From a virus (lineage: Duplodnaviria; Heunggongvirae; Uroviricota; Caudoviricetes): a DNA stretch of 14,741 nt. The stretch lies in IMG/VR virus record IMGVR_UViG_2657245664_000011; one strand, given 5' to 3'. The notes below the pieces were generated by a model. It was not told the DNA's origin and searched no databases. It was given only the letters and a program-made list of their open reading frames with translations. Below are positions 1 to 14,741 of this stretch, piece by piece. The stretch's first letter is position 1. Every line of letters starts with the position of its first letter. The position numbers were made by a program, and so were the translations under genes.

Positions 1-1053
1 TTACGGGGTAATGCCAACCGCTGCCGCCACTTTGTCGCCACTTGGCAGCGTTGCCAGAGGATTGAAACGGAGCGCCGTTTCTAGATGATCCGGTGCCAGA
101 TGTGCGTAACGCATAGTCATTTTTATATCGTGGTGTCCGAGAATTTTTTGTAAGGCCAGAATGTTTCCACCCGACATCATGAAGTGCGCCGCAAACGTAT
201 GGCGCAGAACGTGTGTGAGTTGACCGCGAGGGAGCACGATAGACGTTTTTTCCATCACGGATAAAAATTGAAAATAGCAGTCTGTGAAGAAATTGAACCC
301 ATCAAGCGCCATGATCTCTTCGTAAAGCTCTTTACTGATAGGGATGCTTCTGTTTTTCTTCCCCTTCGTTCTGACAAAGGTAATTCGGTATTTGGTCACC
401 TGTGAGCGGGTAAGATTTACGGCTTCACGCCAGCGTGCGCCTGTGCTTAAGCATATCTTAACTACCAGTGCCAGAATTGGGTCCTGACGTTTGCAATCAG
501 CCAGCAATTCAACAATCTGCTCATGGGTAAGCCATGCCATCTCTTTTTCTGCGATGGTGAATTTTCGCATGTTCTCCAGTGGGTTCGGATACGACCATTC
601 GCCCAGACGGGATAGTTCGCTAAAAACACTACTTAGATAGCTTTGCTCCAGGTTAATGGTGACCGGGCTTGCTCCTTTCTTCCATTTCTCGCTGAAGTAG
701 ATCTCGCCTGTCAGGCGTTTATCTCGATAGTGGGCAAACATTTTAGAGGTGAGATCGGTTGCAAGAGGATTGCCCAGAGCGTCAACCATCAACAGCAATT
801 TGTCATAGACATGCTGCCCAGCTGTCAGAGATTTACCATGTAGTTTGAACCATAGCTCAACCACGTCTTTCAGTGTTCGACGATCCACTGATTCACCCAG
901 CCAGGGCTTTGCTTCGGTTTCTTCCATCGTGTGGCGCTCAAAAGCCAGTGCTTCGCCTTTGGTGGCGAATTGTTTACGCACACGACGCCCACTTCGTCCG
1001 GCGGGGTAACATTCGCAAAGCCATTTCCCTGTGGTTAGTTTTCGTACTGCCAT
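1..1053 (-). CDS. int: Tyrosine site-specific integrase, P2/186 family
   Basis: 350-aa ORF whose C-terminal region carries the tyrosine-recombinase signature (LRHTFA ... GHHDIKMTMRYAHL, with the catalytic Tyr). It sits at the prophage end, co-oriented with the repressor. The stop codon is at positions 1-3, so the gene is complete. Confidence 0.9.
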   Translation of the reverse strand: MAVRKLTTGKWLCECYPAGRSGRRVRKQFATKGEALAFERHTMEETEAKPWLGESVDRRTLKDVVELWFKLHGKSLTAGQHVYDKLLLMVDALGNPLATDLTSKMFAHYRDKRLTGEIYFSEKWKKGASPVTINLEQSYLSSVFSELSRLGEWSYPNPLENMRKFTIAEKEMAWLTHEQIVELLADCKRQDPILALVVKICLSTGARWREAVNLTRSQVTKYRITFVRTKGKKNRSIPISKELYEEIMALDGFNFFTDCYFQFLSVMEKTSIVLPRGQLTHVLRHTFAAHFMMSGGNILALQKILGHHDIKMTMRYAHLAPDHLETALRFNPLATLPSGDKVAAAVGITP

Positions 1054-1080
1054 AAAAAGCCCTCATATCAGAGGGCTAAA
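1054..1080 (-). terminator. Hairpin followed by a T-run immediately upstream of the int ATG; candidate intrinsic terminator for the cargo gene and/or an RBS-sequestering structure
   Basis: On the minus strand the sequence reads AGCCCTC-TGATAT-GAGGGCT-TTTTT-ATG (7-bp stem, 6-nt loop, T5). The GAGGG in the 3' arm is also the only plausible Shine-Dalgarno for int. Confidence 0.35.
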
Positions 1081-1135
1081 TTTAACTGTATATGTAACCA
1101 GTAATCAATGTGTGATTACTATGAAACATACATTG

Positions 1136-2812
1136 CTAAGCAACATGTAGTTCATCGTTGGCGGAAGTGGCTGCTTTGCGCTCCTGCTCAATAGCTAGAG
1201 ACTCTCTATATTCTTTCGCCTCTGCAAACATTGTCCAGTGGGCGTTGATGTTCATGTCTTCAATAACTGATTTGATTTCTTTTAAATTTACGTTAAAAAA
1301 CTCTTTTCGTGAGTTAATTTTATTGACCTGCTTTTCGTTGAAAACTTTATGCAGATGGTTTTCTAATGATGGTGCATCATCACTATAAATCATCGCATGA
1401 ACATCGAACGAAAAAGGAACACTAGCATCTCCGAGTTCACGAACACGATCAAGTGGTTCAAGGCGGCGTGTCATTCCAATTTTATATACATCTTCGCCAA
1501 ATGAACCAATATTACTAATGATATAGACGTGGCCTGATCTGGTTTGTTGAGCCATAGAAATAGCTCGTTGATTTTTAGCTTCAGCTTCTTCATATTTTAA
1601 CTGTAGTTCAGCTATTTTTTGCTCTAAAGCTAAGCGTTGTTCTTCATTTGCAAGCATAAGTTCTTTCGTTGCTTTATTTATAGCTTGCTGAATAGCTTTT
1701 TCTTCTTTTTCAGCTTCTTTTATCGCTTTTTCATATTCTCTACGAGCTCTTTCCTCTTCACGAAGCTGTTCTTTAATCCTTCTTTGCTCTTCTTTTTCTT
1801 CGAGCATAATTTCATTAACTGCTACACCCCATTTTAGCTCGTTGAGTCTTGCCTGAAGATAGATGTCACTTATTTTTGCGGACCTAAAGGCAGAGCCATT
1901 GTAATTTACTAGTTGAAATGCATCTTTTATTTCTTGGGAAAGTTTTCCAAAATTGTTGTGTTTGACTTTTGATAAAATACTGTCAACTCTTCCATTGAAG
2001 GCATCCAAAACAAAGTTTATGGCAGTATTACGCCTGTTTTGCTCAACATAATCACACGAAGCAGCTTTATTAGTTTTTATTAATGATTTGGTTAACTCTC
2101 TGGCTTTTTGTAATTCCTTGCCTGCATCTGTAAATTCATAATTTTCTGCCAGCTCATCAAGTACACTACGGTTAGGGATGATCCATTCATCACCATAACC
2201 TTCAATTTTATTTTTCATTGATTTTGCAACTGCTTCATATTTTTCTGCAAACTCTTTAGCTTCATATGCTGAACCAGCAATCTCCTTTGCTCTTTCTTCT
2301 GCATCAGAAATAATTTTTACTGCATTGTCATTAGCATTTGAGATTAGCTCATTTGCTTTATTATTAGCATTATCAAGACGTTCTTTGGCTTTCAGGCGTG
2401 CATCGCGAGCGTCTTTGGTGATTGCTATAGCTTCGCTATTAGCGTTGCTTATTGTCATCTGAGCTTGATAATTTGCTTCGTTTACTGTTTTAGCCGCCTT
2501 AATTTGGGCTTCATCTATTTTTTGCTTGGCTATTGAGTCCGCATTTTTTATCTTATTCTCTGCATCCATTACTGCGCTGTGCAATTCTTCGTATTGCCAC
2601 AATGGTGCTGCTCGCCCTTCAAGCTCTGATAATTCTCGTACGGTCTGTGCTAGTTTTTCTTGATTTTCAATCAGTTGGTTAGAAAGGGCTATGTTGTTAG
2701 CTGTCAGGTTATCTATAGCCGCTTTGTGTTTTTTACTTTGTTTAAATAATATTACAGCTAGAACAGGGGCGAGAAATGCTAATAAGAGTATAACGATGGC
2801 AAATGAATTCAT
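1136..2812 (-). CDS. Prophage cargo protein: N-terminal transmembrane anchor, long coiled coils, a central DUF4041-like region and a C-terminal T5orf172/GIY-YIG-like domain; candidate defense or exclusion factor
   Basis: 558-aa ORF with an AAGGA ribosome-binding site 7 nt upstream of the ATG. The N-terminus (FAIVILLLAFLAPVLAVILF) is a hydrophobic helix. Long K/E/A/N-rich heptad-like stretches follow. The C-terminus (GHVYIISNIGSFGEDVYKIGMTRRLEPLDRVRELGDASVPFSFDVHAMIYSDDAPSLENHLHKVFNEKQVNKINSRKEFFNVNLKEIKSVIE) matches the T5orf172 pattern as I recall it. The gene is visibly more AT-rich than the flanking phage genes. Confidence 0.8.
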   Translation of the reverse strand: MNSFAIVILLLAFLAPVLAVILFKQSKKHKAAIDNLTANNIALSNQLIENQEKLAQTVRELSELEGRAAPLWQYEELHSAVMDAENKIKNADSIAKQKIDEAQIKAAKTVNEANYQAQMTISNANSEAIAITKDARDARLKAKERLDNANNKANELISNANDNAVKIISDAEERAKEIAGSAYEAKEFAEKYEAVAKSMKNKIEGYGDEWIIPNRSVLDELAENYEFTDAGKELQKARELTKSLIKTNKAASCDYVEQNRRNTAINFVLDAFNGRVDSILSKVKHNNFGKLSQEIKDAFQLVNYNGSAFRSAKISDIYLQARLNELKWGVAVNEIMLEEKEEQRRIKEQLREEERARREYEKAIKEAEKEEKAIQQAINKATKELMLANEEQRLALEQKIAELQLKYEEAEAKNQRAISMAQQTRSGHVYIISNIGSFGEDVYKIGMTRRLEPLDRVRELGDASVPFSFDVHAMIYSDDAPSLENHLHKVFNEKQVNKINSRKEFFNVNLKEIKSVIEDMNINAHWTMFAEAKEYRESLAIEQERKAATSANDELHVA

Positions 2813-2832
2813 TTTAAAATCCTTTTACTATA

Positions 2833-3429
2833 TTAATTCGAGACTATTGTACTTCTTATACAAGCAACCACTTCAATATCAGAAAATGCACATTCAAAGC
2901 TATTCTCTGCTGTTGTAATTTTAATCATTCCTTTAGGAAGCCTTGTGATTTTTCGAATGGAATAGGTTCCGTCGATATTGATTAACCAGTTTCCATCAAG
3001 TACTTCAGAAAATTTTTGATCACAAATGTATGTGACGAGTCCATCCTGAACAACAATTGGTGATGAAAGGTTTGCAGGAAGAAATGATGAATCGAAGACA
3101 TATGAACCGTCTTCAATCATTTTGCCTGCGGCAAGGCGAAACTTAACAAGCTCTTCTGTAGCTGCTGTCAGCGAGCTTTGCTTAAGGCCTTGTCCGGTAG
3201 TTAACCATTTGAGGGAGGTTCCTGTTTCAAGAGCACATTGGATTATCCAGTCAGCAGGAAATGTATCCCGCAAATACCTGTTCGCTAGTGTGCTTTTTGA
3301 TACTTCCAAGTGATCAGCTAAAGCCTGTCGTGTCGTAAAGCCATAGGCTTCGACTAATCGCTCAATCGCAGCCTTACCACCTTTATTGGGATTTATTTTG
3401 ATCTCACTTGGGTACTTTGATGTTGACAT
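2833..3429 (-). CDS. cI: CI-like immunity repressor (phage 186 CI type, N-terminal HTH plus C-terminal oligomerisation domain)
   Basis: 198-aa ORF divergent from apl/cII. The N-terminal pattern EAYGFTTRQALADHL...LANRYLR...CALETG..LKWLTTGQG is the 186 CI-type HTH as I recall it. Position and length are close to 186 CI. Confidence 0.8.
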   Translation of the reverse strand: MSTSKYPSEIKINPNKGGKAAIERLVEAYGFTTRQALADHLEVSKSTLANRYLRDTFPADWIIQCALETGTSLKWLTTGQGLKQSSLTAATEELVKFRLAAGKMIEDGSYVFDSSFLPANLSSPIVVQDGLVTYICDQKFSEVLDGNWLINIDGTYSIRKITRLPKGMIKITTAENSFECAFSDIEVVACIRSTIVSN

Positions 3430-3451
3430 ATCTCTTTTGCGATCCTAGTAT
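3423..3451 (+). promoter_or_regulatory. Candidate early lytic promoter pR (sigma70)
   Basis: TTGACA at 3423-3428, a 17-bp spacer, then TAGTAT at 3446-3451. It faces apl/cII and overlaps the cI start codon, consistent with a 186-type switch. Confidence 0.55.
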
Positions 3452-3458
3452 CAGTTTT

Positions 3459-3474
3459 GTACCCAATTGGGTAC
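3459..3474. promoter_or_regulatory. Perfect 16-bp palindrome GTACCCAATTGGGTAC at the predicted pR start; candidate operator for CI or Apl
   Basis: Exact dyad symmetry read directly from the sequence. A TTGGGTAC half-site recurs at 3408-3415. Confidence 0.45.
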
Positions 3475-3524
3475 TTGTCACGATTACTACAGGCTCACCA
3501 CAAGCCAATAGGAGATGTTGCATC

Positions 3525-3746
3525 ATGACCCCTAACATTTCAATAACTCTGAATACGCCACACGTCACAATCGAGCGTTATAGCGAACTTACTGGTCTTT
3601 CAATCGACACAATCAACGATATGTTGGCGGATGGTCGCATTCCTCGGCATCGTCTTCGTAAAGACAAGAAAAGAGAAAAGGTAATGATCAACCTTGCTGC
3701 TCTTACCGTTGATGCACTTACTGATTGCAATGTTGTATTCAACTAG
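3525..3746 (+). CDS. apl: Apl/Cox-like excisionase and transcriptional regulator
   Basis: 73-aa ORF that is the first gene rightward of the switch. A small basic protein with an HTH-like segment ([29 protein letters not shown]). The ATG at 3525 is preferred over the upstream TTG of the ORF track because that extension would run through the promoter and into cI. Confidence 0.7.
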
Positions 3747-3778
3747 TTCCATTTTGGGATACATCAGAGGTGTCGACC

Positions 3779-4288
3779 ATGTTTGATTACCAAGTTTCCA
3801 AACATCCACATTTTGATGAAGCCTGTCGTGCATTCGCACTGCGCCACAATCTGGTGCAACTGGCAGAACGTGCGGGCATGAATGTGCAGATTCTGCGGAA
3901 CAAGCTGAACCCAGCTCAACCTCATTTATTAACCGCACCAGAAATCTGGCTGCTTACCGATCTGACTGAAGATTCAACGTTGGTAGATGGTTTTCTGGCA
4001 CAGATTCATTGTCTGCCATGTGTACCGATTAATGAGGTAGCAAAAGAGAAACTGCCGCATTACGTCATGAGCGCAACTGCAGAGATCGGGCGTGTTGCAG
4101 CAGGTGCGGTATCTGGTGATGTAAAAACTAGTGCCGGTCGTCGTGATGCTATCAGCAGCATTAACTCTGTAACACGACTGATGGCTCTGGCTGCTGTTTC
4201 ATTGCAAGCCCGTTTACAGGCTAATCCTGCGATGGCGAGTGCAGTTGATACCATGACTGGCCTTGGTGCTTCATTCGGTTTGCTGTGA
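3779..4288 (+). CDS. cII: CII-like activator of lysogeny establishment (186 CII type)
   Basis: ATG at 3779 with an AGAGG ribosome-binding site 8 nt upstream gives a 169-aa product starting [21 protein letters not shown], which closely resembles 186 CII as I recall it and matches its length. Confidence 0.8.
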
Positions 4289-4295
4289 GGTGTTT

Positions 4296-4592
4296 ATGCT
4301 GACGAAAGAACCATCATTTGCATCGCTGCTGGTAAAACAAAGCCCGGCAATGCACTACGGTCACGGCTGGATCACGGGTGAGGATGGAAAACGCTGGCAT
4401 CCATGTCATTCACAAGATGAATTGCTGTCTGAATTGACCACGAGGAAACGGAGAAAGTCCAAATGTATGCGGCAGAAAGTGAAGTGGTTTATCAGTTTCG
4501 TTACAGAGGGGAGAGTTATTCAGTACCTGAAGGTGATTTGCTCTGTTGCTATCCGTCATTGTCGGGCGATGGCAGTTACTTTTTCACGTTAA
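4296..4592 (+). CDS. Hypothetical early protein in the fil/dhr position
   Basis: ATG at 4296 with a GAGG ribosome-binding site. The N-terminal half looks protein-like, while the Cys/Arg-rich C-terminal third overlaps the next ORF and may not be translated as drawn. Confidence 0.4.
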   Translation: MLTKEPSFASLLVKQSPAMHYGHGWITGEDGKRWHPCHSQDELLSELTTRKRRKSKCMRQKVKWFISFVTEGRVIQYLKVICSVAIRHCRAMAVTFSR

Positions 4593-4687
4593 AGGATGGG
4601 ACGTTTTTACGGGGAGAGCAGGTTAAAGAGACGATACGAAAAAATGTATCTCCTCTTGAGCGTTACCGTAAGAACAAAGAACGATAG
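4463..4687 (+). CDS. Hypothetical early protein
   Basis: 74-aa ORF with a GGAG ribosome-binding site and natural-looking composition. It overlaps the preceding ORF by about 130 nt in another frame. Confidence 0.5.
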   Translation: MYAAESEVVYQFRYRGESYSVPEGDLLCCYPSLSGDGSYFFTLKDGTFLRGEQVKETIRKNVSPLERYRKNKER

Positions 4688-4709
4688 CTGCGTTTGGGGG
4701 ATATGAAGT

Positions 4710-5051
4710 ATGGCAATTAATGGCGCTGCAGCAACTGTTCCATTAAGCCCCGGTGAACGCCTGAATGGACTTAATCACATTGCGGAGTTAAGGGCGAAAG
4801 TTTTTGGCCTGAATATTGAGTCAGAGCTTGAGCGGTTTATTAAAGATATGCGTGATCCACGGGATATCAATAATGAACAAAATAAACGGGCACTGGCTGC
4901 CATATTCTTTATGGCAAAAATTCCAGCTGAACGTCATAGCATCAGCATTAATGAGCTGACCACTGACGAAAAGCGGGAGCTGATTAAAGCAATGAATCAT
5001 TTTCGTGCAGTGGTGAGCTTATTTCCCAGACGGCTAACCATGCCGAATTAA
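4710..5051 (+). CDS. Hypothetical early protein
   Basis: 113-aa ORF co-oriented in the early operon with a G-rich ribosome-binding site upstream. Confidence 0.55.
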   Translation: MAINGAAATVPLSPGERLNGLNHIAELRAKVFGLNIESELERFIKDMRDPRDINNEQNKRALAAIFFMAKIPAERHSISINELTTDEKRELIKAMNHFRAVVSLFPRRLTMPN

Positions 5052-5118
5052 CCAACTAATGAAATTAATGGCGTAAACCCGCCGGGCATCCCTTTATCTA
5101 AATTCAGGAGAATTGATT

Positions 5119-5352
5119 ATGCGTAATATTGAAACCCTCACGACTAAAACCGGACCGGATGACGCAGGGCTTAATATTTTACTGACAGAGGCTCGTCTGG
5201 AAGAACGCCGGGCAAGGGCTGAAGCAATGGCTGCTCGCCTTGATAGCCTGGCGTGTCATATCTCATCCCGCCAGCTAAACCACGTGGAAGCGGCAGAACT
5301 GCTGCGCGTGACTGCTGAAGCAATCCAGAACGAAGCGCAGGAGATCCACTAA
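5119..5352 (+). CDS. Hypothetical early protein
   Basis: AGGAG ribosome-binding site 8 nt upstream of the ATG at 5119. Its stop overlaps the next start (TAATG), suggesting translational coupling. Confidence 0.5.
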   Translation: MRNIETLTTKTGPDDAGLNILLTEARLEERRARAEAMAARLDSLACHISSRQLNHVEAAELLRVTAEAIQNEAQEIH

Positions 5353-5579
5353 TGGCTGATGCAATGGATCTCGTACAGCAGCGCGTTGAAGAAGAACGCC
5401 AGCGCCATATCCGTGCAGCCCGTGCCAAATCACCGGGCGTGTCACGCGTACTTTGCATTGAATGTGAAGCGCCAATTCCGCCAGCACGACGCCGCGCCAT
5501 TCCGGGAGTGCAGCTTTGCATTACCTGTCAGGAAATCGCAGAACTGAAAGGCAAACATTACAACGGAGGTGCTGTATGA
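5352..5579 (+). CDS. TraR/DksA-family C4 zinc-finger protein
   Basis: 75-aa ORF with CIECEAPIP...CITCQ, two CxxC pairs at the spacing typical of phage TraR-like proteins. Confidence 0.7.
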   Translation: MADAMDLVQQRVEEERQRHIRAARAKSPGVSRVLCIECEAPIPPARRRAIPGVQLCITCQEIAELKGKHYNGGAV

Positions 5580-6433
5580 GCACCATCCTGAAATGGGCGG
5601 GAAATAAAACCGCCATTATGCCAGAACTGAAAAAATACCTTCCTGCTGGCCCGCGACTGGTTGAACCTTTCGCGGGTTCCTGTGCTGTGATGATGGAAAC
5701 GGATTATCCCAGCTATCTGGTTGCGGATATTAATCCTGATTTAATCAACCTCTATAAAAAGGTTGCCGCTGATTGTGAATCGTTTATATCTCGCGCCAGA
5801 GTTTTATTTGAGATCGCAAACAGGGAGGTGGCTTATTACAACATAAGGCAGGAGTTTAACTGCTCAACTGAAATTACTGATTTCATGAAAGCGGTATATT
5901 TCCTGTATCTCAATCGTCACGGTTACCGTGGTTTATGTCGCTATAACAAGAGCGGGCATTTCAACATTCCCTACGGTAATTATAAAAATCCGTATTTCCC
6001 TGAAAAAGAACTTCGCACATTTGCAGAAAAAGCCCAGCGAGCAACGTTTATCTGCGCCAGCTTTGATGAAACGCTGGCGATGTTGAAGGCGGGAGATGTG
6101 GTGTATTGCGATCCGCCATATGACGGTACGTTTTCCGGCTATCACACTGATGGTTTCACTGAAGATGACCAGTATCACCTGGCATCCGTTCTTGAACATC
6201 GGTCATCAGAAGGACATCCGGTCATTGTTTCTAACAGTGACACATCCCTGATCCGTTCGCTGTATCGCAATTTTACTCACCACTATATCAAGGTAAAACG
6301 CAGCATCGGTGTGGCAGCTGGCGAGGGTAAATCAGCAACAGAAATCATTGCTGTTTCCGGGCCGCGCTGCTGGATGGGATTTGATTATTCGCGTGGCGTG
6401 GATAGTTCTGCCGTGTACGGAGTACGTGCATGA
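5576..6433 (+). CDS. dam: Dam-family N6-adenine DNA methyltransferase (orphan, phage-encoded)
   Basis: ATG at 5576 with a GGAGG ribosome-binding site. Carries ILKWAGNK, an AdoMet-binding motif (EPFAGSCAV) and the catalytic DPPY. Start and stop overlap the neighbours as ATGA, so it is translationally coupled between the TraR-like gene and gene A. Confidence 0.85.
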
Positions 6434-7956
6434 GTCATGCCGATATGAACAACTGCTGCGGCTTTAACGAGGCTGCCGCAGCATTCTCATGGAACAGCCC
6501 GAAAAAGGCCATTAACCCTTATCTGGACCCGGCGGAAGTTGCGCCGGTTTCTACGCTTTCAAACCTGATCACTCTGTACGCTGCCGATAACGAGCAGGAA
6601 CAGTTGCGCCGCGAGGCACTGAGTGATCAGGTCTGGGAGCGTTATTTCTTTAATGAATCACGTGATCCTGTCCAGCGCGAAATGGAGCAGGATAAGCTCA
6701 TTAGCCGGGCAAAGCTGGCGCATGAGCAGCAGCGTTTTAATTCAGACATGGTCATTCTGGCGGACGTCAACGCCCAGCCTTCCCATATCAGCAAGCCGCT
6801 GATGCAACGTATTGAATACTTCAGCAGCCTGGGCAGGCCAAAGGCTTATTCCCGCTATTTACGTGAGACGATTAAGCCATGTCTGGAACGACTGGAGCAT
6901 GTACGCGACAGTCAGCTATCTGCATCTTTTCGCTTTATGGCAAGCCATGAAGGGCTGGACGGCCTGCTGATCCTGCCTGAAATGAGTCAGGATCAGGTGA
7001 AACGCCTGTCCACCTTGGTAGCTGCGCATATGAGTATGTGCCTTGATGCAGCTTGTGGTGATTTGTATGCCACCGATGACGTTAAGCCAGAAGAAATCCG
7101 CAAGACATGGGAAAAGGTGGCAGCGGAAACCCTGCGTCTGGATGTCATCCCACCTGCGTTTGAGCAACTCCGTCGGAAAAGAAACCGCCGTAAACCCGTG
7201 CCGTATGAACTCATTCCGGGTTCGCTGGCGCGTATGTTGTGCGCCGACTGGTGGTATCGGAAATTATGGAAGATGCGTTGCGAATGGCGGGAAGAGCAGT
7301 TGCGCGCTGTTTGCCTGGTCAGCAAAAAAGCATCTCCTTATGTCAGCTATGAAGCCGTGATGCATAAACGTGAGCAGCGCCGTAAGTCGCTGGAGTTTTT
7401 CCGTTCTCATGAACTGGTGAACGAAGACGGCGACACGCTGGACATGGAGGATGTGGTAAACGCCAGCAGCAGCAACCCTGCGCATCGCCGCAATGAGATG
7501 ATGGCCTGTGTTAAAGGTCTGGAGCTTATCGCGGAAATGCGCGGTGACTGCGCCGTTTTCTACACTATCACCTGTCCGTCGCGTTTCCATTCCACGCTAA
7601 ATAACGGCAGACCAAACCCGACCTGGACAAACGCGACGGTAAGACAAAGCAGCGATTATCTGGTCGGCATGTTTGCTGCATTTCGTAAGGCGATGCACAA
7701 AGCCGGGTTGCGCTGGTATGGCGTGCGGGTGGCTGAGCCGCATCATGATGGCACAGTTCACTGGCACCTGTTGTGTTTCATGCGCAAAAAAGACCGCCGT
7801 GCCATCACTGCATTACTGCGTAAGTTTGCCATCCGTGAAGACCGCGAGGAGCTGGGCAATAACACTGGGCCGCGCTTTAAGTCTGAGTTGATTAAGCACT
7901 GTGTGTCAGGCTGGATGGCGTGGAAAAATAGGTTTGTCGCCATTTTTTGTGAATAG
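6430..7956 (+). pseudogene. A: Replication initiation endonuclease gpA (rolling-circle HUH type), C-terminally truncated
   Basis: 508-aa ORF containing the HUH motif (TVHWHLLCF). It ends in a short atypical tail that overlaps the inverted terminase fragment. P2/186 A proteins are about 700-760 aa, so the C-terminal part is missing. Confidence 0.75.
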
Positions 7957-8764
7957 CCATACCGGAAGCCACTTTGCGCAGCTCCTGGAATTTCGGTATC
8001 CAGAAATATTCATCCAGATACAGGTTGCCGTGGTAACTCTGGGCCGTGCGGGCATTGGTGCCGAGGAAGTACAGCGTGGCCCCGTTAGGAAGCACCATCG
8101 GATCGCCTTTCAGCTCCACCTCCACTTCTTTGGCGAAGTCGATGATGTACTGCTTAAAGACGTGGGCCTGAGCCTTGCTGGCGGAAAGGAAAATCTGGTT
8201 ACGCCCGGTTAGCAGGGCGTCAATCAGGGCTTCACGGGCAAAATAGAAGGTCGCGCCGATCTGGCGTGACTTCAGCAGGTTGCGGATGCGGTTGGTTTTT
8301 CCGGCTTCCCACCAGTGGCGCTGGTAGTTGAACATGGAGGAATGGAAGATTTCTTCCAGCTTCTCAATCTGTTCATCGGTGAAAACGTTCTTTTCCGGCT
8401 GACGGCGCGGGCCTTTGTTGCGGTTGGCGACGTTAGGGTTTAAGTCGGCTTCGTTGCCGCCATTGTTAAACTTGCCGATCCGCGCATGGCGCTCCGACTG
8501 GCGCGCCAGCAGGTCAATCTCTTTGAAATCTTTCCCTTCTTTGTGCTCCTTCATAATGAGCTGGCAGTAGCGTGCGGCGGTGGTGAGCTGCATCTGATCC
8601 AGCGGCCCATAGTCACCCCACTTGTCGCGTTTTTTCCAGCTGTGAACGGTTGCAACTTTCTCGCCCAGCATTTCAGCAATGCGGGCTACGCGGTATCCCT
8701 GAAAGTACAGCAGCATGGCCTGCCGACGGGGATCGAGATCTGCGGGTGTCAGTGTGGTGTTCAT
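7892..8764 (-). pseudogene. P: Terminase ATPase (large subunit) gpP, N-terminal fragment only
   Basis: 290-aa ORF with P2 gpP-like N-terminus and Walker-type motifs ([24 protein letters not shown]). A full gpP is about 590 aa, and the nuclease half is absent. Its orientation is opposite to gene A, as in P2. Confidence 0.8.
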
Positions 8765-8813
8765 GGCACAAACCTACAGCCTTGAATGAAGGCTTTCCCC
8801 GCCTGCGGTTTGT

Positions 8814-9998
8814 GTGGTTGCGGGTTTACTTACTGCACCGTTGTCATCTTTGCGCCGCACGGCATCACTGACGGGAAATGTCATGAAAACTGTAGCAGGT
8901 GCGCCGGTTGCACTTTTGCGGTCTGGATTATCCGGTTTACGTGCTGTTGCTGTGATGTTTATGAATCCTCTGGCGGTACTGCGCGGTGGACTGGTCGCCG
9001 CAGGCACGGTGCTGCGAGTACTGGCATCTGGTCCACTGGCGATGCTGCGCGTTGCCCTGTATGCCGTATCTGGTCTGTTAGGTGCTCTGCTCAGTCCGAT
9101 AGGTCTTGTGGTTACTGCACTGGCGGGCGTGGCGCTGGTTGTCTGGAAATACTGGCAACCCATCACCGCATTTCTTGGTGGCGTGGTGGAAGGATTCAAA
9201 GCGGCGGCAGGTCCCGTCAGTGCAGCATTCGAACCACTTAAGCCTGTGTTTCAGTGGATTGGCGACAAAGTGCAGGCGCTCTGGGGCTGGTTTACTGATC
9301 TGCTGACGCCCGTTAAGTCGACCTCTGCCGAACTGCAGAGCGCAGCGGCAATGGGGCGACGATTCGGGGAGGCACTGGCGGAAGGGCTGAATATGGTTAT
9401 GCATCCGCTGGACTCCCTGAAATCTGGCGTTTCCTGGTTGCTGGATAAACTCGGCATTGTCAGTAAAGAGGCTGCAAAGGCGAAACTGCCGGAAAGCGTG
9501 ACGCGTCAGCAACCTGCGACGGTGAATGCAGACGGTAAAGTGATGATGCCATCGGGTGGTTTTCCGTCATGGGGATATGGCTTTGCGGGGATGTATGACA
9601 GCGGCGGCTATATCCCGCGTGGGCAGTTTGGCATCGTCGGTGAAAACGGGCCGGAAATTGTTAACGGCCCGGCAAATGTGACCAGCCGGAGAAATACAGC
9701 TGCACTGGCTGCCGTTGTTGCCGGAATGATGGGCGTTGCTGCCGCGCCAGCAGAGCTTCCACCGTTGCACCCTTTGGCACTTCCCGCGAAAGGTGGAGAA
9801 GCAATTGTGAGTCGCGCAGCCACTGTGCCGCTCGTTCAACGGATTGAGGCACCGACGCAGATCATCATTCAGACGCAGCCAGGACAAAGTGCGCAGGATA
9901 TTGCGCGGGAGGTGGCACGCCAGCTTGATGAACGTGAACGCAGGCTGAAGGCAAAAGCCAGGAGTAACTACAGCGATCAGGGGGGATACGACGCATGA
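8814..9998 (+). pseudogene. T: Tail tape measure protein gpT, C-terminal fragment
   Basis: 394-aa G/A/L-rich ORF whose stop overlaps the gpU start (ATGA). The frame opens only at 8790, a few bases from the terminase fragment start, and the first possible start is a GTG. P2 gpT is about 815 aa. Confidence 0.7.
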
Positions 9999-10480
9999 TG
10001 ATGGTGCTGGGATTGTACGTGTTTATGCTGCGCACCGTTCCGTATCAGGAACTGCAGTATCAACGCAGCTGGCGACATGCGGCAAACAGCCGGGTAAACC
10101 GTCGTCCGTCCACGCAGTTTCTGGGACCGGAAAACGACATGCTGACGCTTTCCGGTGTTCTTATGCCGGAGATAACAGGCGGCAGGCTGTCGTTGCTGGC
10201 ACTGGAGCAGATGGCAGAACAGGGGAAAGCATGGCCCCTGATTGAAGGCAGCGGCACGATTTACGGCATGTATGTGATTGAGGGACTGAATCAGACTAAA
10301 ACGGAGTTTTTCCGCGACGGTATGCCGCGCAGGATTGAGTTCACCCTTTCGCTAAAACGGGTGGATGAATCCCTGTCCGATATGTTCGGTGATCTCAGTA
10401 CTCAACTGAATAATCTGCAGGACACGGCAACGTCTGCCTTAAGCGATATCAGTAAAACGGTGGGAGGGCTGCTGTCGTGA
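9995..10480 (+). CDS. U: Tail protein gpU
   Basis: 161-aa ORF in the T-U-D order, coupled to T upstream and D downstream. Its size matches P2 gpU. Confidence 0.85.
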   Translation: MMMVLGLYVFMLRTVPYQELQYQRSWRHAANSRVNRRPSTQFLGPENDMLTLSGVLMPEITGGRLSLLALEQMAEQGKAWPLIEGSGTIYGMYVIEGLNQTKTEFFRDGMPRRIEFTLSLKRVDESLSDMFGDLSTQLNNLQDTATSALSDISKTVGGLLS

Positions 10481-11577
10481 ATTTCAGCTCTGAACTGCTT
10501 AACAAAGGAAACAAAACTCCCGCATTCAGCATCAGTATTGAGGGGAAGGATATCACCACTGTGCTGGATAACCGCCTGATGAGTCTGACGCTGACGGACA
10601 ATCGGGGCTTTGAAGCGGACCAACTTGATCTGGAGCTGGACGACGCCGACGGAAAAATCGTGCTGCCGCGCCGTGGTGCGGTCATTACGCTGGCGCTGGG
10701 CTGGAAGGGGCAGCCGCTTTTCCCGAAAGGGGCATTCACGGTGGACGAGATTGAACACACTGGCGCACCGGACCGCCTGACTATCCGGGCGCGAAGTGCT
10801 GATTTTCGGGAAACGCTGAATACCCGCCGTGAAAAATCGTGGCATAACACCACCATCGGGGAAGTGGTGAAGGAAATAGCCGCGCGGCACAAGCTGAAGA
10901 TGGCACTGGGTAAAGACCTGTCGGATAAGCCCGTGGAGCATATAGACCAGACTAATGAGAGTGACGGCAGTTTTTTGATGCGGCTGGCGCGCCAGTACGG
11001 TGCCATTGCATCGGTGAAAAATGGCAATCTGTTATTCATCCGGCAGGGACAGGGCAAAAGCGCCAGCGGTAAACCACTGCCGGTGATTACTATCACACGT
11101 AAGGACGGCGACAGTCACCGCTTTACCCTGGCAGATCGCGGAGCTTACACGGGGGTAATTGCCAGCTGGTTGCATACCCGCGAACCCGCGAAGAAAGAAA
11201 GCACTACGGTGAAGCGTAAGCGCAGGACTAAGAAGCAGAAGAAAGAGCCGGAAGCGAAGCAGGGCGATTACCTGGTGGGGACGGATGAAAACGTGCTGGT
11301 ACTTAATCGCACTTATGCCAACCGGAGCAACGCTGAACGGGCAGCGAAAATGCAGTGGGAACGCCTGCAACGCGGCGTTGCGTCATTCTCGCTACAACTG
11401 GCGGAAGGGCGGGCAGATCTCTACACGGAAATGCCAGTGAAAGTCAGTGGCTTTAAACAGCCGATAGATGATGCGGAATGGAGCATTACGACTCTGACGC
11501 ATACCGTCAGCCCGGATAACGGTTTTACGACCAGTCTGGAGCTTGAAGTGAGGATTGATGATTTCGAAATGGAATGA
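10477..11577 (+). CDS. D: Tail protein gpD
   Basis: 366-aa ORF with a GTG start overlapping the U stop. It occupies the P2 D position immediately before ogr. Confidence 0.85.
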   Translation: MNFSSELLNKGNKTPAFSISIEGKDITTVLDNRLMSLTLTDNRGFEADQLDLELDDADGKIVLPRRGAVITLALGWKGQPLFPKGAFTVDEIEHTGAPDRLTIRARSADFRETLNTRREKSWHNTTIGEVVKEIAARHKLKMALGKDLSDKPVEHIDQTNESDGSFLMRLARQYGAIASVKNGNLLFIRQGQGKSASGKPLPVITITRKDGDSHRFTLADRGAYTGVIASWLHTREPAKKESTTVKRKRRTKKQKKEPEAKQGDYLVGTDENVLVLNRTYANRSNAERAAKMQWERLQRGVASFSLQLAEGRADLYTEMPVKVSGFKQPIDDAEWSITTLTHTVSPDNGFTTSLELEVRIDDFEME

Positions 11578-11667
11578 TTCTTCGCAATGGAGAACTTTTA
11601 AGTTTGCAAAATGGAATAATGCGGTATCATTATTGTGAATTTAGCAAAAATGGGGAGAACTCGAAAA

Positions 11668-11886
11668 ATGATGATTTGCCCACTGTGTGGAAGTGCCGCC
11701 CATACTCGCAGCAGTTTTCAGGTATCTTCATTGACCAAAGAGCGTTACAACCAGTGCCAGAACATTAACTGCAGCCATACTTTTGTTACCCATGAAACTT
11801 TTGTTCGTTCGATTGCAACGCCAAAAGAGTCAAATCCGGTTCAGCCGCATCCAATGAAATCAGGACAGGTGGCGCTCTCTCTTTGA
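11668..11886 (+). CDS. ogr: Ogr/Delta-family zinc-finger late transcription activator
   Basis: 72-aa product MMICPLCGSAAHTRSS...QCQNINCSHTF with the CxxC-(22)-CxxxxC arrangement of P2 Ogr and 186 B. A GGGGAG ribosome-binding site lies upstream. Confidence 0.85.
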   Translation: MMICPLCGSAAHTRSSFQVSSLTKERYNQCQNINCSHTFVTHETFVRSIATPKESNPVQPHPMKSGQVALSL

Positions 11887-11972
11887 CGCTGCCGCCATTT
11901 TGTCGCCATCGTTAAAAAACAGTGCTTCTAACATCATGATTTTAAACAGCATAAATTTCAGGCAACAAAAAA

Positions 11973-12009
11973 CCCATCAACCTTGAACCGAAATGGCGGG
12001 GTTGATGGG
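11973..12009. other. Inverted repeat CCCATCAACC / GGTTGATGGG (10-bp stem, 17-nt loop) in the ogr-ybjL intergenic region; possible terminator or part of attR
   Basis: Read directly from the sequence. It lies between convergent ogr (+) and ybjL (-) at the expected prophage-chromosome boundary. Confidence 0.3.
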
Positions 12010-12121
12010 CTCCACAAAATGGGGACATCAAAGAAAAGCAGTGGCACTAATTAAGACTGATGCCCTGCGGAAAAGTTCTGCGGTTGTGCAAAAAAATTTC
12101 ATTTTCAGGGCAACTTCAGTT

Positions 12122-13807
12122 TTATCCTAATCCTGGCCATACCATGACGATGATTGTCCCTGCCAGCGTCAGCAGGACGTTGGCGATTGCATAGGTGCCC
12201 GCATAGCCCAGCGCCGGGATGTTACTGCGAGCTGTATCACTGATGATCTCCATTGCCGGCGCGCAGGTACGTGCGCCCATCATTGCGCCGAACAACAGCG
12301 CGCGGTTCATTCGCAATACATAAGCACCGAACAAGAAACAGATAACCACGGGCACCAGACTGACAATCAATCCGGCAATCAACATCTGACCGCCAATCGC
12401 GCCCAGGCCGTTATTAATACCGCTACCGGCGCTCAGACCAACGCCTGCCATAAACACCATCAAGCCGAACTCTTTCACCATGCTTAATGCACCCTGCGGA
12501 ATGTAACCGAAGGTCGGGTGGTTAGCACGCATAAAGCCCAGCATAATTCCGGCGAATAACAACCCGGCAGCGTTCCCCATGCCGAAACTGAATGTGCTGA
12601 ACTGGAAGGTGATCATCCCGATCATCAGCCCAATAACAAAGAAGGCGCAGAATGCCAGCAGGTCAGTGACCTGGCTGTGAATCGAGATAAAGCCGATGCG
12701 ATCGGCGATGGTTTTTACGCGGCGGGCATCGCCGCTGACTTGTAAAACGTCACCTTTGTTAAGCACGACGTTGTCATCTATCGGCATCTCAATCTGGCTA
12801 CGAATGACGCGGTTAAGGAAGCAACCGTGATCGGTCAACTTCAGTTGTGCGAGACGTTTACCTACAGCGTTATGGTTTTTAACGACCACTTCTTCAGTGA
12901 CGATACGCATGTCGAGAAGGTCACGATCGAAAACTTCTTTACCGTTACGGAAGCTGGGATCGAGTCGGGCATGGGCGTCGGGATAGCCTACCAACGCTAT
13001 TTCATCGCCCATTTGTAGCACGGCATCACCGTCTGGATTTGCCAGAATCCCGTTACGTCGAATACGTTCAATGTAGCAGCCGGTTTGTCGATAAATACCC
13101 AGTTCACGCAGATTTTTGCCGTCGGTCCAGGCCACCAGTTCCGGGCCGACGCGATAGGCGCGGATCACCGGTAAATAAACCTTACGGTTGGCATCAGTGT
13201 CCAGGCCACGTTCGCGGGCGATTTGCTGGGCGCTGGTCTGTAAGTCCTGATGCTGCAATTTCGGCAAGTAACGCGCACCAACAATCAAACTCACCAGACC
13301 GATTAAATAGGTTAAGGCATACCCGAGGCTCAGATTATCCAGTGCCAGTGAGAGCTGCCTGCTTTCCATGCCGGAATGACGCAGTGTATCGCCAGCACCG
13401 ACCAGAACCGGTGTCGACGTCATAGAGCCTGCTAACATACCGGCCGTCAGGCCAATATCCCAGCCAAACAGCTTACCTAACCCTAAGGCGATCACCAGCG
13501 CACTGCCAACCATCACCAGTGCTAACATTAGGTAATTTTTCCCATCGCGAAAAAAAATGGAAAAAAAGTTCGGTCCGGCTTCGACCCCGACGCAGAAAAT
13601 AAACAGCATAAAGCCAAGATTAAGCGCATCGGTGTTAATGCTGAAATGTTGTTGGCCTAATAACAGCGATACGACTAAAACGCCAATGGAATTACCCAGT
13701 TGGATCGAACCAAGTCGTAACTTTCCGAGACATAGCCCAAGCGCGAGGACCACAAATAATAACAGAATGTAATTCCCATTTAACAATTCGGCGACGTTTA
13801 TATTCAC
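12122..13807 (-). CDS. ybjL: Putative transport protein YbjL (AAE-family permease with TrkA-C-like domains)
   Basis: 561-aa polytopic membrane protein whose sequence matches E. coli YbjL as I recall it. Neighbour order ybjL-ybjM-grxA matches the E. coli chromosome. Confidence 0.9.
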
Positions 13808-14076
13808 GGAGGCTAACTTCTTGTTTACTAGTAAGCTGTTGAAAGAAATGGTAATTTACGATAATGTTTTTTACCAGAATTCAGGGCGCAGATTCATTCA
13901 GCGCACCTAAACGATAGTAAAGTAACAATATATTTTACTAGTGTAATCACATTAGGTATCAACGGCTATATGAATTGCGTTGGCCTATATTAGCATGGAA
14001 TGCGAAGCGGCTTTATCTTACTGAACGCCACACTGGCGAAAAATGTGTTCGATAGACGCAGTGTCAGGAGGAACGA

Positions 14077-14454
14077 GTGAAACATAAACAACGTTGGGCG
14101 GGGGCAATCTGCTGTTTTGTCCTCTTCATTGTGGTGTGCCTTTTTCTGGCGACGCACATGAAAGGCGCTTTTCGGGCTGCCGGGCATCCTGAAATCGGCT
14201 TGCTATTTTTCATTCTTCCTGGAGCAGTCGCCAGCTTCTTTTCACAGCGTAGAGAAGTCCTGAAACCTCTGTTTGGCGCAATGCTGGCGGCACCCTGTTC
14301 GATGCTCATTATGCGGCTGTTTTTTTCACCGACGCGCTCATTCTGGCAAGAGCTGGCATGGTTACTAAGCGCGGTGTTCTGGTGTGCGCTGGGGGCACTG
14401 TGTTTCTTATTTATCAGTAGTTTGTTTAAACCACAGCACAGAAAAAATCAGTAA
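14077..14454 (+). CDS. ybjM: Inner membrane protein YbjM
   Basis: 125-aa hydrophobic ORF with a GTG start and an AGGAGG ribosome-binding site 5 nt upstream. Conserved position between ybjL and grxA. Confidence 0.8.
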   Translation: MKHKQRWAGAICCFVLFIVVCLFLATHMKGAFRAAGHPEIGLLFFILPGAVASFFSQRREVLKPLFGAMLAAPCSMLIMRLFFSPTRSFWQELAWLLSAVFWCALGALCFLFISSLFKPQHRKNQ

Positions 14455-14474
14455 AGCCCTCAACGCGAGGGCTT
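14454..14474. terminator. Bidirectional intrinsic terminator hairpin between convergent ybjM and grxA
   Basis: AAGCCCTC-AACGC-GAGGGCTT (8-bp GC-rich stem, 5-nt loop) with A/T runs on both sides. Confidence 0.5.
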
Positions 14475-14483
14475 GTCAGACGA

Positions 14484-14741
14484 TCAGGCGTCCAGATTTT
14501 CTTTCACCCATGCAGCAAAATCGGTATAGCCGCCGATATGTTGCTGATCGACAAAAATCTGCGGCACGGTTTCTACGGGTTTACCTGCCTTTTGTTGTAG
14601 ATCTTCTTTAGTGATCCCTTCCGCACGAATATCTACATACTGATACTGAAAATCATCGCGTTCATTGCTCAATTTCTCAGCCAGATCTTTTGCACGCACA
14701 CAGTAAGGGCAACCCGAACGACCAAAAATAACGGTTTGCAT
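14484..14741 (-). CDS. grxA: Glutaredoxin 1
   Basis: 85-aa ORF MQTVIFGRSGCPYCVRAKDLAEKLS... with the CPYC active site, matching E. coli GrxA. It starts exactly at the window end. Confidence 0.95.
   Translation of the reverse strand: MQTVIFGRSGCPYCVRAKDLAEKLSNERDDFQYQYVDIRAEGITKEDLQQKAGKPVETVPQIFVDQQHIGGYTDFAAWVKENLDA

Follow-up and report, generated by a model that had tools for sequence, protein, structure and literature searches.

A probable recent deletion joins truncated replication and terminase genes in a cryptic P2/186-like prophage of Escherichia coli, at breakpoints that recur in related remnants

Results

The window holds a P2/186-like prophage remnant with two deletions

We analysed a stretch of DNA of 14,741 nucleotides (the window), which is a piece of an E. 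coli chromosome. It runs from the int gene of a P2/186-like remnant to grxA, with ybjL and ybjM at its right (Table 1). Position 1 is the last base of the int frame and position 14741 is the first base of grxA; thus, the window was cut at gene boundaries and its edges are not natural DNA ends. About 11.9 kb of phage DNA is left in it. The ORFs and their Pfam domains follow the gene order of P2/186-like phages (Peduoviridae), int-repressor-early operon-A ... Q-P / O ... T-U-D-ogr. Apart from its two deletions, the remnant is colinear with P2 and with an intact relative, Escherichia phage Cartapus (Elveevirus; OV696611), which also supplies the coordinates of all breakpoints given below. A 14-nt att core, AACAAAAAACCCAT, is duplicated in E. 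coli CPE35, where one copy lies beside int and the other beyond ogr, and Logan contig SRR16760876_208 terminates at both copies. By gene order, domains and att duplication, we classify the element as a P2/186-like prophage.

Table 1. Features of the prophage remnant in the window
Feature	Position	Strand	Size, state and source
int	1-1053	-	ORF list, CPE35 annotation, Pfam
DUF4041/T5orf172 cargo gene	1136-2812	-	ORF list, CPE35 annotation, Pfam
CI repressor, 186-type	2833-3429	-	ORF list, CPE35 annotation, Pfam
Early operon: cII-like, fil, DUF2732, TraR-like genes	between CI and Dam		ORF list, CPE35 annotation, Pfam
Dam methylase	5516-6433	+	ORF list, CPE35 annotation, Pfam
Early/lysogeny arm of the remnant	1-6433		intact
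A', truncated replication-initiator gene	6430-7956	+	508 aa
Deletion joint, TAA	7893-7895		exact-match extension from both window ends against CPE35 (L002)
P', truncated terminase large-subunit gene	7892-8764	-	290 aa
Rest of the divergent P/O promoter region	8765-8820		ends at the older joint, 8820; BLAST to Cartapus
T', C-terminal fragment of tail tape-measure gene	8820-9998	+	RefSeq CPE35 annotation by coordinates
U	9995-10480		intact; CPE35 annotation, BLAST to Cartapus 19742-22698 (T' through ogr)
D	10477-11577		intact; CPE35 annotation, BLAST to Cartapus
ogr	11668-11886		intact; CPE35 annotation, BLAST to Cartapus

The remnant resembles Cartapus and the 186-type phages in its gene order and its CI/cII-type switch, and at the sequence level its identity to Cartapus is 99.8% in the Dam-A region and 98% in P. 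It differs from Cartapus in that the latter is a complete phage of 33.4 kb with a different integrase and different cargo.

One of the two deletions ends at position 8820. There, sequence upstream of P (Cartapus 3725) is joined to the middle of T (Cartapus 19742) with an overlap of 1 nt, and the segment from O through the 5' part of T (~16 kb) has been removed. CPE35 has the same joint, and RefSeq starts a tape-measure pseudogene at the equivalent base of that genome. The deletion at 8820 is older than the deletion between A and P. An earlier note on this DNA, made from the sequence alone, described the A-P joint and did not mention the joint at 8820; the A-P deletion is thus the second in the element.

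A' and P' have lost essential parts of both proteins

The ORFs of A' and P' are convergent and, as the earlier note had stated, the end of A' overlaps the 3' end of the terminase ORF, by 65 nt. From 6430 to 7895, A' is 99.8% identical to gpA of Cartapus. Residues 1-488 of 804 are authentic, which leaves the stub 316 codons short of the CPE35 protein and not 200-250 codons short as had been estimated. At codon 489, which is of mixed origin, the joint has turned AAC into AAG (N to K); translation then continues through 19 codons of antisense P sequence, foreign to A, to a stop at 7954-7956. In Pfam, A' covers positions 1-300 of the 321 positions of Phage_GPA, versus 1-321 for the 804-aa protein of CPE35. 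The HUH region (HWHLL) is kept; alignment with P2 gpA places the cut 10 residues before the catalytic tyrosines of the YIAKY motif, so that Y498 and Y502 are lost. The origin of replication, at about codon 675 (Cartapus ~31269; the P2 record annotates the origin nick at 29892), is also lost from A'.

P' retains 290 of 588 codons. It had been described as the N-terminal ATPase half of the terminase: the N-terminal part is there, with the Terminase_5 DNA-binding domain (residues 11-68), but the ATPase half is incomplete, as only positions 1-141 of the 215 in the Terminase_6N ATPase model are kept (Pfam). Terminase_6C is absent from P' in Pfam, and the RNase-H-like nuclease domain is lost. The TAA stop of P' was made by the joint, with TA contributed by P and A by the A side; intact P reads ...THSA YPFWSG across this point. 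The tyrosines and origin of A', cos, Q, the 3' half of P and everything from O to the middle of T are absent, so the element is not a functional (inducible) prophage. With A and P truncated, cos and Q lost, and the segment from O to mid-T lost, it cannot replicate, package its DNA or build particles. Judged from what they encode, A' and P' are dead gene stubs.

The A-P joint is exact and results from loss of 5,948 bp

We compared the window with E. coli CPE35 (NZ_CP075722.1, locus L002), which carries the same remnant at rcdA/ybjL. All of the window aligns to this genome at 100.0% identity, as two blocks that together cover a 20.7-kb region of it. Starting from the window ends, exact matches reached 7,895 nt inwards from the left edge and 6,849 nt from the right (1-7895 and 7893-14741, 0 mismatches), and CPE35 has 5,948 bp extra between the two blocks (L002 9396-15343, ~2,978,269-2,984,216 of the record). 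The blocks overlap by TAA, the sole sequence shared at the joint; the left side of TAA continues as A in CPE35 and the right side continues as P. According to the RefSeq annotation, the missing 5,948 bp comprise the 3' 40% of A (last 316 codons), six small ORFs, one of them DinI-like, cos, all of portal gene Q, and P from its last 298 codons on (its 3' half).

The joint passes from parental A through TAA to parental P with no IS, repeat, target-site duplication or inserted base. It thus lies in 3 nt common to both parents and lacks an insertion, as in microhomology-mediated illegitimate recombination, and the other joints that we found in related remnants have overlaps of 0-5 nt. An overlap of 3 nt is by itself only mildly non-random (~5%, by our own estimate).

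These results uphold the central claim of the earlier note, a deletion junction between truncated A and truncated P with no IS or repeat visible at the joint. Neither gene proved to be full length relative to its homologs, both being truncated against CPE35, and alignment to a relative without this deletion (CPE35), a check of the kind that the note had recommended, located the two ends exactly and revealed the 3-bp microhomology. The terminase fragment, on the contrary, is not inverted as had been thought. Since the two genes are convergent in every integrated P2/186-type prophage, with P transcribed towards A, the event is a simple deletion. The loss of cos and Q had been correctly deduced, but tin/old was not part of the missing segment, where the lost cargo consists of the six small ORFs with the DinI-like gene.

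Taken together, we consider it highly probable (roughly 85%) that window positions 7892-7956 are the scar of a recent, simple 5,948-bp deletion in a P2/186-like (Peduoviridae) cryptic prophage located between rcdA and ybjL. The deletion must be recent because the flanks in the window are identical to undeleted CPE35. The main use of the joint is that this undeleted and 100% identical parent makes both breakpoints exact. On its own, the deletion is ordinary prophage decay: the joint alone records a further stage in the degradation of a cryptic element and presumably has no function of its own.

We also considered whether the joint could be an assembly artefact, that is, a collapsed or chimeric contig. 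A junction-spanning query found it in 0 of 5,426 complete E. coli genomes, and only one public read set yields it, as might be expected of an artefact. In the independent Logan assembly of this read set, a single contig, SRR16760876_208, contains the exact 508-aa A' product and agrees with the window at each of 11,993 nt, with ~8 kb on one side of the joint and 4 kb on the other; as window and contig may derive from one isolate, the agreement is a control for the assembler and not for the biology. However, the two sides share only 3 nt, far too few to mislead a k-mer or overlap assembler, so such an assembler would have no reason to join them. Moreover, each of the two ends is found with other partners in assemblies that are unrelated to the window (see below). 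We therefore regard an artefact as extremely improbable.

The P end of the joint is reused with different partners

The P end of the joint lies at Cartapus 2798 (P-sense GCTTA/TCCG, with the slash at the break; window 7893). A search for the exact 290-aa P' product recovered many contigs whose P ends at this codon but whose DNA beyond it varies: intact P has GCT TAT CCG here, whereas these contigs read ...CACAGTGCTTA and then the partner sequence. A look-up of this kind favours joints that create a stop codon. Hence, we ran a second scan for P sequence followed by any base except T and also examined P-fusion proteins. At least nine junction types have P-2798, at exactly this base, as one of their ends; its partners in them are A-30712 (the window), Q-1192 (L004, L013), Dam-28523 (L005), Dam-28564 (L006), A-29338 (L007, L011, L012), cII-27053 (L137), Q-1367 (L141), Q-1573 (L142, L143) and D-22175 (L135, in the complete genome TUM3755). 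L135 keeps the opposite side of the P-2798 break, and its joint reads CCAGAACGGA/AAGCGAAGC on the + strand.

The joints of L137, L141 and L142 are independent of stop-codon creation, so the recurrence of P-2798 is not a bias of the look-up. Beside P-2798 joints, the P' alleles are separated by as many as 15 SNPs over 310 nt. Because these alleles have diverged while the deletion in the window is recent (its flanks equal CPE35), the P-2798 joints must be separate events. No junction-type sequence at the P site was detected among the GTDB species representatives, and the more than 120 copies in IMG/VR are all intact and read through it. In other samples, two Logan contigs (L009 and L010) stop within 1 nt of P-2798, after GCTT and GCT, respectively; such ends suggest a branch of the assembly graph, that is, a further variant at P-2798 in those samples.

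A fixed end with variable partners could arise if an IS had once been inserted at the P site and was then lost with flanking DNA, in an excision-enhancer-type event that leaves no IS behind. Deletions associated with IS excision have a fixed end, a variable partner and short microhomology, which is the pattern seen here, and the two Logan contigs that end at P-2798 are consistent with it as well. However, none of the nine joint types contains an IS or a target-site duplication, and at least nine different sites would each need an IS history of their own. P is uninterrupted in CPE35, which is identical to the parent, and the more than 120 IMG/VR copies read through the site; an IS that was later lost is thus very unlikely.

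The A end and other breakpoints are also reused

The A end of the joint is GATTAA/CCC (Cartapus 30712, window 7895). L142 and L143 join Q-1101 to A-30713, and they do so in an A allele that is 94.8% identical to Cartapus, as compared to 99.8% for A in the window. The order in L142 is P' (up to 2798), Q 1573-1101 and A' (from 30713); it is therefore the joint of the window plus a 473-bp piece of Q between the same ends. In L143 (2268-3292), the joints of L142 are accompanied by an inversion of 604 bp within A' (Cartapus 29689-30292), each end of which has an overlap of 2 nt. When complete genomes were sampled for further uses of the A end, none was seen among the sampled matches.

At least seven further breakpoints recur with different partners in different loci. 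These are P-3114/3116 (L137, L139/L023, L144), D-22175 (L007 and L135, whose D alleles match Cartapus at 96.8% and 82.4% identity), O-4421..4430, FII-16890..16893, cII-27181..27183, T-20210/20211 and 6268/6270. We scored how often endpoints coincide in 40 distinct junctions, with every P-2798 end left out. Eight pairs of endpoints from different junctions fell within 2 nt of each other, versus 0.47 expected under a uniform model and a maximum of 4 pairs in 2,000 simulations; this null is uniform and the loci were selected for carrying P sequence, and regional clustering would raise the expected number a few-fold, which still falls short of the 8 pairs observed. The two ends of the joint are not placed at random: the P end and the A end each served as breakpoints in independent lineages, and the breaking or joining of DNA in these phage genes is therefore strongly sequence-directed.

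Several of these sites deserve brief description. P-3114 and D-22175 correspond to window positions ~8209/8210 and 11251/11252, and both are intact in the window. On the + strand, P-3114 reads TCCGGT/CAGCAGGGCG and D-22175 reads GCCGG/AAGCGAAGCAGGGCG; AGCAGGGCG is common to the two just after the break. L006 has an inversion-type joint (1827-1829) that connects the tail-tube gene (Cartapus 16893, + strand) to the baseplate/tail gene I (12036, - strand), and the 16890-16893 end is used again in L096, where it is joined to 4430.

A targeting enzyme is possible, and the candidates examined gave no match

Instead of random breakage, targeted cleavage could have produced the deletion: an enzyme with sequence specificity would have cut at a set of preferred sites in the prophage, after which the ends were religated. 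A nuclease that nicks or cleaves, a topoisomerase, or a recombinase that accepts quasi-sites might have this role. Breakpoints do recur to the nucleotide with either side kept, and L142 looks as if four cuts had been religated. Identical words are also broken at the same place, GGCGG/CAACG at 3361 and 4611 and CTGGATA/ACC at 5533 and 7802. Furthermore, retained ends favour A (27/54, versus 25% expected) and TA (12/54, versus 3.9% expected) as their last bases, although these counts are partly dependent because the two ends of one joint share microhomology. G is enriched at -5/-4 and C at +2/+3 of the break ends. Yet no single recognition motif covers all sites; the P2 origin nick, the att core and the invertase site are all unlike the break sites, no CRISPR array carries the predicted spacer, and, by a crude score, topoisomerase determinants are no more frequent than at random positions. 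We therefore hold targeted cleavage to be possible but doubtful.

Specific candidates were evaluated one at a time. Nicking by gpA (an HUH protein) at a pseudo-origin was rejected: the P2 nick GCGCCTCG/GAGTCCTGTCAATAAC and its Cartapus equivalent are unlike the sites, and no joint lies at the origin. Similarly, the core at which Int would act on secondary att sites is unlike either end. An invertase of the Gin/Cin type was dismissed because the gix-like site of the tail-fibre invertase in Cartapus, TTCTCGCATACC-TT-GGTTTGGGAGAA, is unlike the ends and the breaks are not 12 bp from the end of a half-site. In the case of CRISPR type I-E self-targeting, an AAG adjoins the P and D breaks, but the PAM and the 32-nt protospacer are retained, and the predicted spacer is in no array among the 5,426 genomes.

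Structural and recombinational candidates were evaluated as well. Hairpins or cruciforms are not indicated at the P and D sites, where folding z-scores range from -0.8 to +0.3. Chi-like words near the same two sites are on the wrong strand and on the wrong side of the retained ends for Chi/RecBCD. As to cos-like cleavage, 8 nt (AAGCACTG) agree with the cos end of P2 and not with the cos of this phage itself, and the break is 7 nt off the nick. RecA-dependent homologous recombination needs tens of bp, and only 3 bp are common to the two ends. Finally, six symmetric determinants are reported for cleavage by gyrase and Topo IV, -4G, -2A, -1T / +5A, +6T, +8C (PMC10117906). With a crude six-position score, these type IIA determinants reached 3.17 at the 54 ends versus 3.18 at random.

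Discussion

Our analysis describes a deletion that is ordinary in itself; what is noteworthy is that both ends of its joint and several breakpoints of related remnants are reused to the nucleotide in independent lineages. The 5,948-bp deletion may have formed when two broken or stalled ends were joined independently of RecA via the terminal microhomology TAA, either by illegitimate end joining or by template switching; an overlap of 3 bp is weak evidence for any particular joining pathway. The remnant would persist because its lysogeny arm (int, CI, the nuclease-domain cargo gene and Dam) was left untouched. As a tentative and rather speculative extension, P2/186-like prophages of E. coli might decay via a few sequence-determined break sites, namely P-2798, P-3114, A-30712, D-22175, O-4426, FII-16891, cII-27182, T-20210 and 6269, and not at random, through an activity of the host, the phage or a competing element that breaks or joins DNA with a preference for such sites and so inactivates the prophages at the same positions time and again.

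How does this remnant compare to known systems? The K-12 ogr/D remnant and the defective P2-like prophage of E. coli B (ybjL region) are what we take to be the standard examples of cryptic P2-like prophages. BL21 carries a P homologue at ~850 kb, a coordinate that would correspond to the ybjL region. Like the remnant described here, cryptic P2-like elements of E. coli have the Peduoviridae gene order, are adjacent to ybjL, and lost their late genes stepwise while int, the repressor and ogr were kept. Unlike them, the present remnant has an additional deletion from A to P, which none of the 5,426 complete genomes carries.

Illegitimate recombination with one fixed end is known from deletions that start at the origin nicks of M13 and pC194 and from gyrase-mediated deletions. 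The joints studied here are similar in that an end is fixed to the nucleotide, its partners vary and homology is limited to 0-3 nt; they differ in that the phage's own origin nick is not used and no nickase site was found at them. Alternative (microhomology-mediated) end joining also produces ligase-type joins with overlaps of 1-5 nt and loss of the intervening DNA, and it does so with no homology of the size that RecA needs. In E. coli, this pathway involves extensive and variable resection, whereas the ends in our set are reused to the nucleotide.

Current models of prophage domestication treat the inactivation step as a random deletion. If the reuse of breakpoints across lineages is true in a full survey, the inactivation of E. 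coli prophages would be partly deterministic, and the recurrent sites would be a direct handle for finding what breaks DNA there. It is the recurrent breakpoints, and not the deletion itself, that merit a systematic survey; in our searches of the literature, no account of breakpoints that recur among P2-like remnants came up.

The cargo of these elements may also bear on their maintenance. The gene between int and CI in the window encodes a protein of 558 aa with a coiled-coil N-terminal half, a DUF4041 domain (SNIPE in newer Pfam labels) and a T5orf172/MUG113 nuclease-type domain. From its domains, it is likely an anti-phage defence gene, and it may be the reason why the remnant is kept. In relatives, its place is taken by different genes; L005, for instance, has a KAP NTPase there. 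P2-like phages have a known defence hotspot, and the variable slot between A and Q is consistent with this. The content of the slot differs in every remnant: it holds a reverse transcriptase with an SMC-like ATPase, GmrSD, and a PIN protein with DUF6236 (L004, 11895-14484; L013, 1584-3365; L135, 7962-10213).
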